From IMG/VR virus record IMGVR_UViG_3300020336_000219, positions 1-35,338 of that record: a DNA stretch of 35,338 nt. The stretch is one strand, 5' to 3'. A model generated the notes under the pieces. The model did no database searches. It was not told the origin of the DNA and saw only the letters and a list, made by a program, of their open reading frames with translations. The position numbers and the translations under genes were made by a program. Every line of letters begins with the position of its first letter. Position 1 is the first letter of the stretch. This document shows positions 2,256-35,333 of the stretch, piece by piece. Source of the DNA: a virus (taxonomy: Duplodnaviria; Caudoviricetes).

Positions 2256-3015
2256 CATCGAACCCGACGCTTATCGGGCTATGTCTAGCGCACAATATGA
2301 ATGTGAGTGGAGTCCAGAGATATGGACTTATCAAACAAACCTAGACGAGGCTAAACATGCTGTTACCGCAGAGATCGACCGCATCCAAAAACAATGCCCA
2401 GAGCATGAAATATTCTTGGCCTTGGGTGACTCCAGTAATTTCAGGTATGGTGTCTATTCCAATTACAAATCAAACAGACGTAAATATAGAAAGCCAGCGG
2501 GGTATTCAGTATTACGGCAATGGCTACGTGACACATTTAAAGTCATCACGCTAAAGCTAACTGAAGCCGATGATGTTGTCGGAATTTTGGCTGATGAAGA
2601 GAGTGGAGATGTTATCTACTCAAGGGATAAAGATTTAAAAACTATTCCAGGGAATCACTTAAACGCTGAAGGTAAGGTTGAAAAAATTCAACTGTTTGAT
2701 GCTGATCAAGCTTTTTATCGAACGATTTTAACGGGCGATGCTACTGATGGATTCCCTGGATTAAAGGGCTACGGCCCCGTTGCAGCAAAGAAGTTACTTG
2801 CTGAATGTACTAGCGAATTAGATATGTGGGAGAAGGTAAGAGCTGCTTATTTAAAGGCAGCAGCTAAAGATCCTGATGTACCAGACATACTTTCTCAAGC
2901 TAGGTGTGCAAGGATTTTGAGACAGACTGAATATGACTTTACGGCTGAGAAACCAATCGAATGGCAACCACCAACGTCTATCGAAGGCGTTTTTATTCCT
3001 ACATACCACGACTAA
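2233..3015 (+). CDS. T7 gp6-like 5'-3' exonuclease
   Basis: NFR...YKSNR, EADDVVG, SRDKDLKTIPG, GDATDGFPGLKGYG motifs of the FEN/gp6 family. Confidence 0.95.
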   Translation: MKKKLFYDIEPDAYRAMSSAQYECEWSPEIWTYQTNLDEAKHAVTAEIDRIQKQCPEHEIFLALGDSSNFRYGVYSNYKSNRRKYRKPAGYSVLRQWLRDTFKVITLKLTEADDVVGILADEESGDVIYSRDKDLKTIPGNHLNAEGKVEKIQLFDADQAFYRTILTGDATDGFPGLKGYGPVAAKKLLAECTSELDMWEKVRAAYLKAAAKDPDVPDILSQARCARILRQTEYDFTAEKPIEWQPPTSIEGVFIPTYHD

Positions 3016-3230: not shown

Positions 3231-3257
3231 AGGGTGCTTATTTCGATATATCATGTT

Positions 3258-3283
3258 TAAAATAATATCAACGACCCTGCAGA
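3258..3283 (+). promoter_or_regulatory. -10 element TAAAAT plus 16-bp box TCAACGACCCTGCAGA
   Basis: -10-like hexamer 3258-3263, 4 nt, then box 3268-3283; same layout at 11239 and 25351. Confidence 0.65.
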
Positions 3284-3291
3284 CTTAGCTT

Positions 3292-3774
3292 ATGGCTGAT
3301 CAGACACCAACAAAACCAGAGGAGAAAAAAGACGAAAAGAAAAATTTAATGCAAAAAATTCAGGAGAAGATACCTGATAGAGACGAACAGTTTGAATATG
3401 TCAGTATTGCCGTGAGGCTTTTGGTAGTTTTTTGGTCGGGTGCGCTCGTAACTTTAAATTATTTACCAAAAATTCCTGGCCTTACGAGTGGAGAGAAACA
3501 GGATATAACTTTCCCTGCGAGTTTGCTAGCGAGTTCGCTCGCAAGTTTCGGACTTGAGAAGAGTGCAAAGAAAAAAGGTGATGGAACATATTCTGTTAAC
3601 TCAGAAGATAAGCCTATGAACAGAAAAGAAATAGAAGCATATTTAAAATCACAAGATGTAATCAGGGTTGACAATAGATTTACTTTGGTTCCACAAGGAA
3701 CAGAAGTTAAACCTATCAAAATTGACCCAATTACAAATAAAGAAATTGGCCCTGACGGGAAACTAAAACTATGA
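3292..3774 (+). CDS. membrane protein (1-2 TM), envelope module gene 1
   Basis: Hydrophobic stretches VSIAVRLLVVFWSGALVTLNYL and ITFPASLLASSLASFGL; charged termini. Confidence 0.85.
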   Translation: MADQTPTKPEEKKDEKKNLMQKIQEKIPDRDEQFEYVSIAVRLLVVFWSGALVTLNYLPKIPGLTSGEKQDITFPASLLASSLASFGLEKSAKKKGDGTYSVNSEDKPMNRKEIEAYLKSQDVIRVDNRFTLVPQGTEVKPIKIDPITNKEIGPDGKLKL

Positions 3775-30586: not shown

Positions 30587-30669
30587 TCTCCAAGGACGTA
30601 GACCTTTACAGCCTACCGATAATCAGGAATATATACCATAGTAGAGAAGTTATTCCACTTCCCCGTAGA
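30587..30669. promoter_or_regulatory. divergent control region with two 16-bp boxes
   Basis: TCTACGTCCTTGGAGA (minus, 30587-30602) abutting the gp6.5-like start, TAGGCT at 30610-30615; TCCACTTCCCCGTAGA (plus, 30654-30669) 5 nt before terS. Confidence 0.6.
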
Positions 30670-30674
30670 AGTTT

Positions 30675-30938
30675 ATGGATTTACAAGAAAAATTAGCAAC
30701 AATCCACGAATTAGTTGCAGATCAAGTTTTAGACGACTTGAAAGAAGGAGATCGCAAGGCAATATCAGCAGCAATGATGCTGTTAAAGCAAAACAATGTG
30801 ACTGCTGTTGCAGCAGAAGGCAGCACATTGAAAAAACTTGCTAATAAATTGGATTTCTCAAGCATGGATGACAAAGTTATTCCGCTTAAGACCCCACCTT
30901 CAAACGTTGAACCCCTCCGAAAGCTCGGCCCGAAGTAG
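30675..30938 (+). CDS. terminase small subunit (gp18-like)
   Basis: L..IH.LVA...L..L..G....AI.AA...LK.NN.TA......L..LA pattern; 87 aa; adjacent to terL. Confidence 0.78.
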   Translation: MDLQEKLATIHELVADQVLDDLKEGDRKAISAAMMLLKQNNVTAVAAEGSTLKKLANKLDFSSMDDKVIPLKTPPSNVEPLRKLGPK

Positions 30939-32652
30939 TTTTTTTCTTAAAACCAAAAGCTATTGAGTCAATAGAACCTGTTGTCTCATCCATCCAAGCG
31001 TCTAATTCATCTTGGAAGAGTTGATCTTTTCGATGTTGTTGTTGAACTTTCTGATCTTGGGCGGCTGACTCAACAAAAAAACCGACTGCAATAGCAAGAG
31101 CGTCAAGGCGGTCATCATGGCTTAAACAATTCCTTTCATGTGTCAATCTTGAGGCTTGCCAAAAAAGGCTCCGTGAATATCCATGTTCAGGATCTTCATC
31201 AGTCAGACGATAATCATTTTTAATGACTCGACTATTAACAATAAGACGATGTTGCTGAATTAAGGGGCCAAGTGTGTCACATAATCTTTCTTCTTTTCGG
31301 ATGTTATGTCTAACTTCTTCGATAGTGCATGGATGAGTTCTTGTTAAATGTGGTTTTAACAGAGCTGTAAACATTCCATCACCCATGTTTGATTCAGCGA
31401 CGACGTAATTAACATCCCATTTCTTTGCTATTTCGGAGAGATATTGCAGAACTTCATCGGCATAACCAAGAGTTGATCCACCAGATTCAAGTAGGAATAA
31501 ATTTCCGTTTAGCTCTGCTAAAACTGCCCAAGCTAATTCGTCCTTACCTCGTCCAGCAGGGTCTATAGCTAAGACACACCGCCACGATTCGGTTTTCGAC
31601 ACCCATCCATTTTGAAATATTGGGCGATGGTAGAACCTATCAGCTCCAAGTCCGACGCAAACTAGATCTTGCAATCTCATGTCAGGTTGATTAGACCATA
31701 TACAAGTCTCTGGTAGAGCTTTCCCATCGAGATCCATGACCATAAGATCCCCAAGCCTGATTGGATACTTGTCTAAAGTTGCTAATCGGGTATTGAGCAT
31801 GAACTGAAGTTCAAAGCTCGCCTTAGTCATGGATGCTTTTCTTTGAAGAATGTCCTCATGCCCAAATCTTTCTGGATCAGTAGGCTCTTCCACGAGGCTG
31901 GTATTCGAGATGACCTCATGTTCAATCGTCGGATCGAGGCTGCCCTCGTAGCAATCGAACTCCTTCGGATAGAGCGCAGGCCAGTAACGAGCAGAATAGT
32001 TCCGTTCTCTCACAAGCCTTAAGTATATACTCGTTTCGGTATGTGGCGTTCCTAAATATAAAATTTTACGGGGTAAAAGCTGGCCCTCCTCTGGCTTTAT
32101 GATACTTTGTATTTCTTCAACAGCGTGTGCAACTCTGTCTTGTTTTAGCTGTGTAATTACGTTAGCTAAAGTCTCAACATCATCGAGTATGGCACAGGTA
32201 CATCTCTGGCCCGTCGTTTGTCCCATGACACCCATTGATCGAACAGACGGAGACTGTTCAACTTGAGCTGGCCCTACATCAAAGGCAACATTTGAAAATC
32301 TATTTTCTGGCCCAGGCATAAGACATTGAAGAATATCTATTTCTCCAATGCAGCGGAGCATAAAAGACGAAAAGTCAGTTGATTTAACTGCTGTAGCAGA
32401 GACAATCAGAATTTTTTCATTTGGATCTACTCTTAATCTCCATAAAGCATAAAAAGACGCAAGAATTGACTTACCTAGTCCACGAAACGCAACCGTAAGA
32501 CTTCGATCTGGTCCATTTTGCATCCAATCACAAACAGAGATCTGCTGCTTAGTTGGGGCATCTGCTAACCCCAACTCTCTAAGCAGATAACAAGTGAAAT
32601 TAGGGAAGCTATCTCTTAATTGAGGAGGTAACGGTTCCCATAAACTTTTCAA
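30886..32652 (-). CDS. terminase large subunit (gp19-like)
   Basis: AFRG.GKS Walker A, GQ.TG.R, DDVE, YLGTP.T, IDPAGRG.DE, ESN.GDGMF, HDDRLDALA. Confidence 0.97.
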   Translation of the reverse strand: MKSLWEPLPPQLRDSFPNFTCYLLRELGLADAPTKQQISVCDWMQNGPDRSLTVAFRGLGKSILASFYALWRLRVDPNEKILIVSATAVKSTDFSSFMLRCIGEIDILQCLMPGPENRFSNVAFDVGPAQVEQSPSVRSMGVMGQTTGQRCTCAILDDVETLANVITQLKQDRVAHAVEEIQSIIKPEEGQLLPRKILYLGTPHTETSIYLRLVRERNYSARYWPALYPKEFDCYEGSLDPTIEHEVISNTSLVEEPTDPERFGHEDILQRKASMTKASFELQFMLNTRLATLDKYPIRLGDLMVMDLDGKALPETCIWSNQPDMRLQDLVCVGLGADRFYHRPIFQNGWVSKTESWRCVLAIDPAGRGKDELAWAVLAELNGNLFLLESGGSTLGYADEVLQYLSEIAKKWDVNYVVAESNMGDGMFTALLKPHLTRTHPCTIEEVRHNIRKEERLCDTLGPLIQQHRLIVNSRVIKNDYRLTDEDPEHGYSRSLFWQASRLTHERNCLSHDDRLDALAIAVGFFVESAAQDQKVQQQHRKDQLFQDELDAWMDETTGSIDSIAFGFKKKTTSGRAFGGVQRLKVGS

Positions 32653-32892: not shown

Positions 32893-32923
32893 CAACAAAA
32901 CCCCCGACTGGTGGCGAGGGTTC
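32893..32923 (-). terminator. intrinsic terminator-like hairpin
   Basis: AACCCTCG-ccaccagt-CGGGGGTT then TTGTTG. Confidence 0.7.
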
Positions 32924-32973
32924 TGAAGCTATCCAATAACCAAAATGCTAATACTTGCTAAGGGGTAAGGGAC
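32893..32973 (-). ncRNA. candidate small RNA 2
   Basis: TTGTAT-N16-TAGAAT promoter (-10 at 32980-32985), ~45-nt body, terminator hairpin ending GGGGGTTTTGTTG; ends approximate. Confidence 0.45.
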
Positions 32974-33004: not shown

Positions 33005-33043
33005 CAACAAAACCCCCTAACGCGCGATATGTTAGGAGGCTTT
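33005..33043 (-). terminator. intrinsic terminator-like hairpin
   Basis: AAAGCCTCCTAAC-loop-GTTAGGGGGTTTT then GTTG. Confidence 0.75.
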
Positions 33044-33089
33044 ATCTAGCCCTAGCTGACCACGACCAAGCAGCAAGCATCTTAGGGAT
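33005..33089 (-). ncRNA. candidate antisense small RNA 1 (seed UUGGUCGUGGU in apical loop)
   Basis: -10 TAAAAT 33096-33101; CCCUA/UAGGG and GCUG/CAGC stems enclosing loop CUUGGUCGUGGU; terminator; complementary motif in five gene leaders. Confidence 0.65.
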
Positions 33090-33106
33090 ACTCTTATTTT
33101 AACTCA

Positions 33107-33365: not shown

Positions 33366-33611
33366 CTAATATCCCCTAGCTTTTCTATCTTTTTCTCTAC
33401 GCTCCCGCAGATATTCACTAAACCCCTCTTGATCTGTCCTTAATCCATCCACTAATCCATGCTTTGCTCTATATCCCCTCATATATTTCCCATACTCTCT
33501 CCTCTCACTACTCGTAAAATCTCTCGCTAATTCCCCTCCACTTGGATCTCTCTCAACCCCCACTCTCTCCTTCATTTCTTTCATCAGATAAGTCTCTTTT
33601 TTCTTACTCAT
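33366..33611 (-). CDS. hypothetical highly charged protein
   Basis: 81-aa ORF with purine-rich coding strand; first gene of the leftward unit. Confidence 0.7.
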   Translation of the reverse strand: MSKKKETYLMKEMKERVGVERDPSGGELARDFTSSERREYGKYMRGYRAKHGLVDGLRTDQEGFSEYLRERREKDRKARGY

Positions 33612-33640
33612 AACATTGATTTGCTTGGTCGTCTAATTAA

Positions 33641-33838: not shown

Positions 33839-34132
33839 CTGCTCGCGATTAAGTAGGCTTCGTCGTCTCGCCTTATCCCCATTTCCCCCATTACCCCTAT
33901 CGGATCGCCTTTAAAAATTCGATCAACTGCAAAAAATTCCTTTTATTTATACTTCGATGGGGTAGGGGGTAGTGAGGGACTGGCTCGGCTGCGAATAATA
34001 AATTCGCATCAGCTCTTCACCCTGGTCTTATTGCTGGACCAGCTCCAAAGGAGACTGACAGGCATACGAACAAGGAAGAGCCCGCCGCATGGAGCTGAGT
34101 GAGTGAGAGTACAACAGATTGTTAAGCTATAA

Positions 34133-34156: not shown

Positions 34157-34213
34157 GTGTTAGCTATTGTCTGGGAGTGCTACGGCACAACCACGACCCT
34201 AGACAATTTAAAA

Positions 34214-34534
34214 GTGAAGCAGTTTTCATTCCACCATGACGGCGGTCATGGTTGGTTACAAGTCCCTGAACAGTCTTTGAAAGACTTAGGCATTGAGCAT
34301 TATGTCTCTGACTGTAGTTATTTGAAAGACAAGCAGGTCTATCTAGAAGAAGACATGGATGCAAGCCTATTCATTGCGGCATGGAAAGCAGAGAAGGGGA
34401 AAGAGCCTGATTGGTTCGACTTCTTTGAAGATGGAGAGTCAAAGATAAGAAACTTTGACCGATACCCAGCCAAAGCTGATAGGTCTTTTAAACAAGTCAT
34501 GCACAAGATAGGCGAGCTAAATAAGGGACTATGA
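34214..34534 (+). CDS. phage early protein of the D.GHGWL...YLEED.D type
   Basis: Motifs HDGGHGWLQV and SY......YLEEDMDA; in-frame GTG 34214 after the leader motif preferred to 34157. Confidence 0.8.
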   Translation: MKQFSFHHDGGHGWLQVPEQSLKDLGIEHYVSDCSYLKDKQVYLEEDMDASLFIAAWKAEKGKEPDWFDFFEDGESKIRNFDRYPAKADRSFKQVMHKIGELNKGL

Positions 34535-34695
34535 AACTAACTAAGAAAGAGATTGAAAGAGTAGGGGATGACCTTGCTCTTTACATGGTGGCCTTGCAAG
34601 AGTTTGAAAAGATAATTGGTTTTCCTGTTGGTCTTAATTTCAAGCAGCAAATGGACTACTTCGATTCTTTTTATCACACTTGCAAGCCTATCTGA
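34531..34695 (+). CDS. hypothetical protein, 54 aa
   Basis: Read manually; ATGA overlap, AAGGGA SD. Confidence 0.65.
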   Translation: MKLTKKEIERVGDDLALYMVALQEFEKIIGFPVGLNFKQQMDYFDSFYHTCKPI

Positions 34696-34753
34696 TCTCA
34701 GCCTGGAGCCCTAAGGGGTTCCATGCTGGGTTCTCCAGCATTACCACGACCAA
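34696..34753 (+). repeat. structured intergenic leader, copy 1
   Basis: GGAGCCC-taag-GGGTTCC hairpin, ATGCTGG..CCAGCAT hairpin, then ACCACGACCAA. Confidence 0.8.
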
Positions 34754-34762
34754 AGGTATTTT

Positions 34763-35104
34763 ATGACTAATTCAGCTCTTGATTTAATGCCTCAAAAGGT
34801 TATTGATTCAATGCCAAGACTATATAAAACAGATAGTCAAGGGAAACAAGCAATGATCTTATGTCATTTATTTGGGCCAATTGGAGACTTTTATTTGACT
34901 GAAGTTAATGAAGAAGGAACCGAGGCTTTTGGGTTTACAAAGCTTGCAGCTCACCCTGATGGTGCGGAGTTGGGATACATCCCACTAACGTCACTTAAGC
35001 AGTGTGTTGGCAAGTTTAAAAGTAATCCAATAGTTAATCTCAAATACATGATTGAAAGAGATTTGCATTGGTCGCCTAAGCCTCTAAAAGAGGTTATGAA
35101 ATGA
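34763..35104 (+). CDS. DUF2958-like protein
   Basis: P.LY.T...LF.P...FY.TE...AFG...ELGY..L..L...IERDLHW.P..L pattern. Confidence 0.8.
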   Translation: MTNSALDLMPQKVIDSMPRLYKTDSQGKQAMILCHLFGPIGDFYLTEVNEEGTEAFGFTKLAAHPDGAELGYIPLTSLKQCVGKFKSNPIVNLKYMIERDLHWSPKPLKEVMK

Positions 35105-35283: not shown

Positions 35284-35333
35284 CCCAGAGCCCTGCGGGG
35301 CTCTCTGATGCTCTCAGCATCTACCACGACCAA
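35284..35333 (+). repeat. structured intergenic leader, copy 2
   Basis: AGAGCCC-tgcg-GGGCTCT hairpin, GATGCT-ctc-AGCATC hairpin, then ACCACGACCAA. Confidence 0.8.

Follow-up and report, generated by a model that had tools for sequence, protein, structure and literature searches.

The window, by which we mean the whole stretch of 35,338 nucleotides analysed here, covers part of the genome of a T7-like cyanophage of clade S (S-SRP02-like) and harbors on its minus strand a predicted trans-acting antisense RNA, which would shut off early genes and the integrase during lytic infection, a reading to which we assign a probability of about 0.6 from sequence comparison. The G/U-rich seed of the RNA is predicted to pair with C/A-rich boxes that lie 0-20 nt before the start codons of early genes and of the integrase.

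On the basis of PHROG matches, the window encodes portal, capsid, tail tubes and terminase alongside an exonuclease and a primase/helicase of the T7 type; its structural block is on the minus strand. The nearest annotated terminases are those of MedDCM-OCT-S37-C6 (80%), S31-C1 (77%), Synechococcus phage S-SRP02 (58%) and S38-C3 (56%), and a quick terminase tree places the window with S-SRP02 (support 100). This grouping matches clade S of PMC12695635, and the marks of the clade given there, grouping with S-SRP02 and lack of a DNA polymerase, are both found in the window. No DNA polymerase is encoded among the 40 window ORFs scanned or in the four annotated relatives, whose 'DNA polymerase I' entries are exonuclease-sized. 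By way of S-SRP02, we infer a cyanobacterial host for the window phage. The relatives measure 42-44 kb, and the ~7 kb of theirs that are absent from the window hold early genes, MarR, integrase, RNA polymerase and SSB; the window ends do not join, as a circular join revealed neither an end repeat nor an ORF spanning the junction. On the minus strand near 30601 and 11253, a common repeat, AAAGG(T)CTACGTCCT, stands ahead of the structural operon and the tail-fibre gene, and represents a candidate late promoter or regulatory site, for which three relatives gave no clear counterpart. Within the gap that separates the divergent operons (~33880-33980), a C-rich and a G-rich arm enclose an A/T-rich spacer, and this element, a candidate genome end or origin, keeps its position in five relatives.

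The RNA locus and the boxes of the window

The RNA locus and its surroundings are composed as follows:

33366..33611, minus strand: gene of an 81-aa protein, upstream of the RNA; predicted target; 64 homologues
33096..33101, minus strand: predicted -10 box TAAAAT, the RNA's own host-type promoter, with a predicted start near 33089
33005..33089, minus strand: predicted small RNA of ~85 nt, with seed hairpin and intrinsic terminator (from folds and alignment A1; no Rfam match)
33050..33087, minus strand: seed hairpin with stem covariation, conserved in an open register (12-nt loop) and a closed one (6-nt loop)
33059..33070, minus strand: seed CUUGGUCGUGGU in the hairpin loop, invariant in A1; other lineages have different seeds, with boxes changed too
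33005..33040, minus strand: intrinsic terminator closing the RNA (stem-loop and U-tail, from the fold)
32896..32925, minus strand: another terminator-like hairpin, with the tail in common, ahead of a 65-aa ORF and the terminase (repeat family D10)
30886..32652, minus strand: terminase large subunit (PHROG 38, E 7.8e-82), a landmark downstream of the RNA and not a target

The original prediction had placed a -10 box, a bulged stem, the loop and a terminator on the minus strand, and all of these coordinates proved correct when re-checked. The hairpin is built from CCCUA (33087-33083), the bulge (33082-33075), GCUG (33074-33071), CAGC (33058-33055) and UAGGG (33054-33050). A consensus scanner listed neither this -10, which is without a -35, nor this terminator, which has a 9-nt loop. 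In the window, the minimum free energy (MFE) fold is the closed register, which pairs about half of the seed and exposes only UUGGUC in the 6-nt loop (-12.8 kcal/mol vs -6.7 kcal/mol for the open form), and this hiding of half of the seed is a point against our preferred explanation. A covariance-model scan of the window against Rfam returned nothing relevant, with three unrelated chance matches only at E<=5, in agreement with the view that the RNA belongs to no named family. In L034 and L038, the predicted RNA bears a box copy of its own near the 5' end, which could pair with its own seed.

ACCACGACC occurs exactly four times in the window (33059, 34190, 34743 and 35323), where 0.05 occurrences are expected and none of 100 shuffles reached this number; with one mismatch there are 19 matches vs 2.3 expected, several of them in low-complexity coding repeats. 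The complement of the loop is found 2-15 nt ahead of four start codons in the window, and a fifth box faces a gene off the window, so that the five leader sites first proposed, including the variants at 3005-3015 and 33622-33632, are present as described:

34177..34198, plus strand: leader hairpin with box 34190-34198; the first early gene starts 15 nt further on (GTG 34214)
34214..34534, plus strand: first early gene, 106 aa, with the box in its leader; predicted target
34706..34753, plus strand: leader cassette of tandem hairpins (34706-34741) and box (34743-34753), 9 nt before ATG 34763; the cassette occurs in relatives
34763..35104, plus strand: early gene, 113 aa, with a weak DUF2958 match below the cut-off; predicted target
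35288..35333, plus strand: leader cassette of tandem hairpins (35288-35321) and box (35323-35333); gene off the window
33622..33632, minus strand: box variant in the leader of the leftward 81-aa gene, whose ATG (33611) is 10 nt downstream
3005..3015, plus strand: box variant with one G-U, 2 nt before ATG 3018, overlapping the end of the exonuclease gene; the weakest target

A homologue of the first early gene in G001 (87%) has its ATG at the same residue and the same box ahead, and in G001 and G002 the leader matching window 35323 has an ATG 13-14 nt downstream. The leader of the 81-aa gene holds a 9-13-nt match in the window, G001, G002, G003 and G021, which is absent in G004; for its product no family was found, none of the 64 homologues has a Pfam match, and the structure model is of low confidence (pLDDT 56) and too poor for a fold search. 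The site at 3005-3015 is also found in G021, and this box may be held in part by coding constraint. A partial box (ACGACC at 3271) follows a TAAAAT in window 3255-3292, before the phrog_2714/564/650/848 cluster, and a similar site exists in G001, G003 and G026.

Boxed early leaders are organized as a cassette of one or two hairpins, the box, a spacer and the AUG. In 35 of 55 boxed leaders, a count that leaves out three rows representing the RNA locus itself, the upstream 40-mer is in the most stable tenth of its own genome. A two-hairpin cassette without a U-tract stands directly 5' of the box in all lineages (window, L154, L159, L165, L065 and L205) and is possibly a processing or stabilising element as well as a recombination module. 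Contigs of run X1 lack a 54-aa ORF, their sequence resuming at the next leader cassette (window 34521-34720 and 34524-34697), which is consistent with gene loss or gain between cassettes.

The original prediction also let the bulge of the RNA pair with AGCAU(CU), which lies 5' of two window boxes. AGCAU(CU) is in fact the paired 3' arm of the second leader hairpin, so that the site is already paired in cis, and the order of the two pairings would cross. Moreover, AGCAT is kept in G003, G004, G021 and L059 although the bulge there is no longer complementary, and since AGCAU both resides in a hairpin arm and persists where the bulge has changed, bulge pairing was rejected; as a second pairing site, the bulge does not covary with AGCAU. 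Of the proposal that a single RNA silences a regulon of early genes, the pairing with a shared box is upheld by sequence covariation, while the pairing through the bulge falls away.

Covariation of the stem and of seed and box

Sixty-three terminase loci were gathered, 44 of which have usable upstream DNA, and the RNA is present in 38 of these 44, 30 with the window-type seed core in a hairpin and 8 with a variant seed; no RNA was found in the other six, whose upstream DNA spans just 0.4-1.2 kb. All 30 window-type loci have a hairpin of variable sequence after the seed, followed in most by a U-rich tail. Pattern scans, which detect the window-type seed only, yielded 46 distinct terminase-adjacent sequences and 35 true loci among 74 metagenome matches; 39 of the 74 metagenome matches and 32 of 78 distinct matches were discarded as chance matches or as having no adjoining marker gene.

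In alignment A1, which comprises 31 loci collected in part with the seed pattern itself, pairing in the open register reaches 98.6%; there are double changes in 27 cells and G-U in 16, and A-C is absent. None of 500 shuffles reached the score of the open stem, and slid controls came nowhere near it either. The closed register is 99.1% paired with 17 double-change cells, and the open register covaries more strongly than the closed one. Because the stem contains G-U pairs, the strand of the RNA is fixed as minus, and stem covariation is seen on the minus strand only. Upstream of the RNA, TAnnnT is present in 23 of 23 representative loci of every seed type, which points to a promoter for the host polymerase, TAnnnT alone being a common pattern and its distance of ~5-11 nt to the first stem or seed having been read by eye. 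The strand-specific covariation, together with the conserved -10, thus speaks for an RNA at this locus. The scaffold varies: in S31-C1 and S-SRP02, the seed adjoins the terminator hairpin instead of lying in a loop. The covariance model R1 recovers the window-type scaffold only (five strong matches) and misses divergent clade members, so that little can be concluded from its lack of matches in outgroups.

When leaders were searched de novo, other boxes emerged in S31-C1, L052, S-SRP02 and S38-C3, and the four seeds predicted from these boxes beforehand were all found beside a terminator. Eight seed types with matching boxes are distinguished: GGUCGUGGU, GGUCGUGGG, GGUCGUGGA, AGUCGUGGG, UGUCGUGGA, GGUGGUUGUUG, GGUGGUGGUGUG and GUUGGUUGG. 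When leaders with a 9-nt match are counted, the matrix of seed and box specificity is block-diagonal, as the genome's own seed matches five leaders and the window seed none in G007, five and one in S31-C1, four and none in both S-SRP02 and S38-C3, and two and none in G006; in L034, whose seed differs at the edge only, the numbers are six and five. The sister loci L050 and L052 differ by one core seed base, and their early boxes follow (3/3 vs 6/6). Two further genomes fit this joint change, and the seed types track the terminase tree. A G-U wobble bias at the box flanks was not seen, and the G006 integrase box does use wobbles. In 14 genomes, 58 of 90 cognate 9-mer sites are located <=25 nt before an ATG ORF against a background of 5.8%, a statistic inflated by the kinship of the genomes and by motif discovery, the 9-mers for divergent lineages having initially been taken from leaders themselves. 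Seed/target covariation in related phages and enrichment of the motif near start codons, both raised with the original prediction, were therefore found.

An alternative reading holds that the box is a DNA or protein site, such as a promoter of the phage RNA polymerase, an operator or the site of an RNA-binding protein, and that the copy in the hairpin is just one more site. The box is indeed strand-oriented and lineage-specific, like T7-type promoters, has ACGAC in common with the T7 promoter given in PMC10134795, and has its hairpin copy oriented in the DNA like the early boxes. However, there are no boxes before late genes, which have a different repeat, and the boxes are not palindromic, are too near the AUG to serve as promoters and come in tandem repeats of 3-6 nt, while the hairpin copy sits between a -10 and a terminator in a structure that is workable on the opposite strand only, so that we hold this reading to be improbable. 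A promoter of the T7-type RNA polymerase in particular was rejected, being absent before terminase, capsid and primase and 0-4 nt from the AUG at 15 of 58 sites.

T7 primase reads (G/T)(G/T)GTC. TGGTC occurs on the seed strand of the window and the phage encodes a primase/helicase of the T7 type, which would suit a motif that serves as primase recognition or priming site. The seeds of S-SRP02 and S38C3 are without GTC, however, and the motif sites cluster at start codons; this explanation is largely refuted by the seed variants, and its likelihood is negligible.

Targets and the outcome of pairing

The integrase, which is absent from the window and was seen in relatives, is the most constant target, boxed in 13 of 14 intact leaders with S37C6 as the exception. 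Boxes are also found ahead of the first early genes, of antirestriction-like and clamp-like early genes, of the leftward 81-aa gene (five of six close genomes), of SSB (four genomes) and of MarR (2-3 of 12, including G005 and G006). No box was found in 13 RNA polymerase leaders (three rows being incomplete at contig or sequence ends), in 14 terminase leaders, in 13 capsid leaders or ahead of the primase. Each RNA has 2 to ~8 dispersed predicted targets, and several leaders carry tandem repeats of the box before the ATG, an arrangement that suits base pairing. S37C6 (L064) has kept the RNA, but of its leaders just those of the first early gene and of SSB are boxed and that of the integrase is not, which counts against our preferred explanation. 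L029 has the same two sites as S37C6, and the subgroup of L064, L029 and L030 keeps the RNA. In three lineages, a boxed early gene encodes a homologue of the DNA polymerase III beta-clamp (L066 10903-11607, L154 near 5583, L165 near 7726), and these lineages belong to a clade without a DNA polymerase of its own.

The region 0-20 nt before the AUG is inside the 30S footprint, and a duplex formed there makes repression of translation the most likely effect, which, for lytic shut-off and immunity taken together, we regard as highly probable from the position of the boxes. The duplex of seed and leader alone comprises 9-14 bp with ~-14 to -26 kcal/mol, and the box abuts the AUG or is within 4 nt of it at 15 of 58 sites, abutting it at several integrase leaders. 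In the mechanism that we propose, host RNA polymerase would transcribe the RNA, the closed 6-nt loop would make the first contact, and the stem would then slip to the open register, which frees the full seed. The resulting 9-14-bp duplex would block ribosome loading, and early genes and integrase would be shut off once infection is under way. More speculatively, if the virion end lies upstream of the early genes as in T7, whose DNA enters early end first and is pulled in by transcription (PMC6042481), the RNA gene would enter last and could act as an entry-coupled timer that ends the opportunity for host takeover and integration. By analogy with the targets of GcvB (PMC3879156), the C/A-rich boxes may double as translation enhancers.

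Pairing could also have another outcome, namely activation through the opening of a hairpin between box and Shine-Dalgarno sequence, or the guiding of processing, decay or termination at the cassette. P4 CI RNA acts by termination (PMC4825925), which would be a precedent for such an effect, and an unusually stable hairpin is found directly 5' of the box in the 35 of 55 leaders mentioned above. In the leader at 34763, the ACC of the box can pair with a downstream GGU, but this box/GGU hairpin is not general, and the cassette hairpins are without U-tracts. To our knowledge, Rho is absent from cyanobacteria. A duplex cannot permit initiation where the box is <=4 nt from the AUG, and an outcome other than repression appears quite unlikely.

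Repression by the same pairing could mainly serve the maintenance of lysogeny and superinfection immunity, with the seed types as immunity groups, in that a prophage would make the RNA constantly and silence the early genes and the integrase, mostly sparing MarR. The host-type -10 ahead of the RNA and the distribution of boxes between integrase and MarR agree with this, as does the presence of MarR, integrase and an adjoining tRNA-Met gene in relatives. Moreover, a few seed changes suffice for heteroimmunity between P1 and P7 c4 (PMC5320573, PMC12197685), and in the LUZ100 model MarR is the proposed repressor of the RNA polymerase gene (PMC10134795). On the other hand, no host-flanked prophage was found: 185,579 species genomes gave two terminase matches and 401 family genomes four close ones, on contigs of 4-41 kb on which only phage genes were recognised, in a search that covered phage genes. 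All six metagenome contigs that run past the integrase continue into the RNA polymerase gene and are hence unintegrated, boxes precede MarR in G005 and G006, and integration in other T7-like cyanophages is transient and does not lead to stable lysogeny (PMC8776855). Immunity as the main role is therefore a serious though rather unlikely explanation, and shut-off during lytic infection, in favour of which we also count that S-SRP02 lyses its host with a latent period of 24 h (PMC8790148), is preferred; one role does not preclude the other.

A complete tRNA-Met(CAT) gene follows directly behind the integrase in six records (L148 9596-9668, L151 18835-18907, L154 1942-2014, L159 926-1000, L167 8924-8996 and L065 39797-39869) and likely marks the attachment region. 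Clade S contigs also occur inside bacterial MAGs (L145, L146, G298:C4, G396:C25 and G118:C118), with no host genes recognised on them; one MAG with such a contig is titled Gammaproteobacteria and is probably mis-binned.

Known systems and biological meaning

In form, the predicted RNA resembles P1/P7 c4 (RF01695), likewise a phage RNA of ~80 nt whose exposed bases pair at ribosome-binding regions and in which few seed changes alter the specificity between related phages (PMC5320573, PMC12197685), a likeness seen here at the sequence level. In contrast to c4, which has three stem-loops with two seeds (a' and b'), is processed by RNase P and targets one antirepressor operon, the clade S RNA consists of one seed hairpin and a terminator, is predicted to be transcribed and terminated by signals of its own, and would act on 2 to ~8 dispersed targets, among them the integrase. 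The conserved -10 directly upstream suggests a primary transcript, and the c4 covariance model gave no match in the window. P4 CI RNA is also an RNA repressor of early and replication functions that acts at repeated phage sites; it is processed from the transcript that it controls through premature termination at seqA/seqC (PMC4825925), whereas the clade S RNA lies opposite the early operon strand, >1 kb from the nearest early box, and its boxes are at start codons. The 81-aa gene is the sole predicted target on the strand of the RNA.

As in GcvB, a single G/U-rich seed would silence numerous mRNAs by way of C/A-rich elements ahead of the start (PMC3879156). Both a stand-alone gene with promoter, exposed seed and intrinsic terminator, as predicted from sequence and conservation, and several unlinked targets whose initiation regions carry the seed complement are found in clade S. 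GcvB, however, is an enteric host sRNA acting on amino-acid transport genes (PMC3879156), while here seed and boxes are phage-borne, near-perfect complements that change together, and the GcvB Rfam model had no match in the window. P22 Sar and lambda OOP, likewise small phage RNAs, each act post-transcriptionally on a single lysis-lysogeny gene and shut it off; OOP is cis-encoded (PMC12197685). Clade S relatives resemble LUZ100 in having MarR and integrase upstream of the RNA polymerase, but the control proposed for LUZ100 is by a protein on DNA (PMC10134795), and its early leaders have no common box.

Nine outgroup T7-like phages, most with an integrase and three covered in part, were compared. 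S-CBP3, LUZ100, RHEph01, ProddE, CRP-227, Lo5R7ANS, S45-C18 and YIMV22061 have no 8- or 9-mer common to three early leaders, and P-SCSP-R27W, read by eye, has no common leader box with an antisense copy. As none of the nine has a shared box with an antisense copy, the system seems to be confined to clade S among the phages examined. In the Limnohabitans phage YIMV22061 (L185, 10479-14716, minus strand), a 7-mer fused to the Shine-Dalgarno sequence occurs in three early leaders, with no antisense copy.

No report of the clade S RNA was found in a literature search that left subscription journals largely outside. In the available text of the S-SRP02 paper (PMC8790148) the words 'promoter' and 'terminator' do not occur, and that of a 2025 review names no T7-like phage sRNA under that term. 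Judging from their excerpts, PMC2864571 names other cyanophage motifs and bioRxiv 10.1101/325100 deals with another lineage. The readable supplements of PMC10690425 contain neither the motif nor the contig names of six relatives; its alignment archives may hold the RNA as an unnamed candidate. On the evidence of its sequence conservation, the element is real, conserved and uncatalogued, a predicted phage RNA that shows unusually strong covariation with a multi-gene set of putative targets.

In other T7-like cyanophages no repressor was recognisable, and the control of integrase and early genes was left open (PMC8776855); the clade S RNA offers a concrete, RNA-based answer to this question. A wider proposal, which is tentative, is that the clade S early programme and the integrase are under one RNA repressor, with a cassette ready for shuffling, an RNA gene that enters last and exclusion between phages of the same seed. 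The RNA is carried by the cultured phage S-SRP02 and can be tested with Synechococcus SR-C1. The eight seed types, with a one-base switch between sisters, constitute a rare natural experiment in which a regulon co-evolves with one RNA, and pairs of seed and box could become orthogonal translation switches in cyanobacteria. If true, same-seed immunity would mean RNA-defined exclusion groups in a family without a recognised lysogeny repressor.
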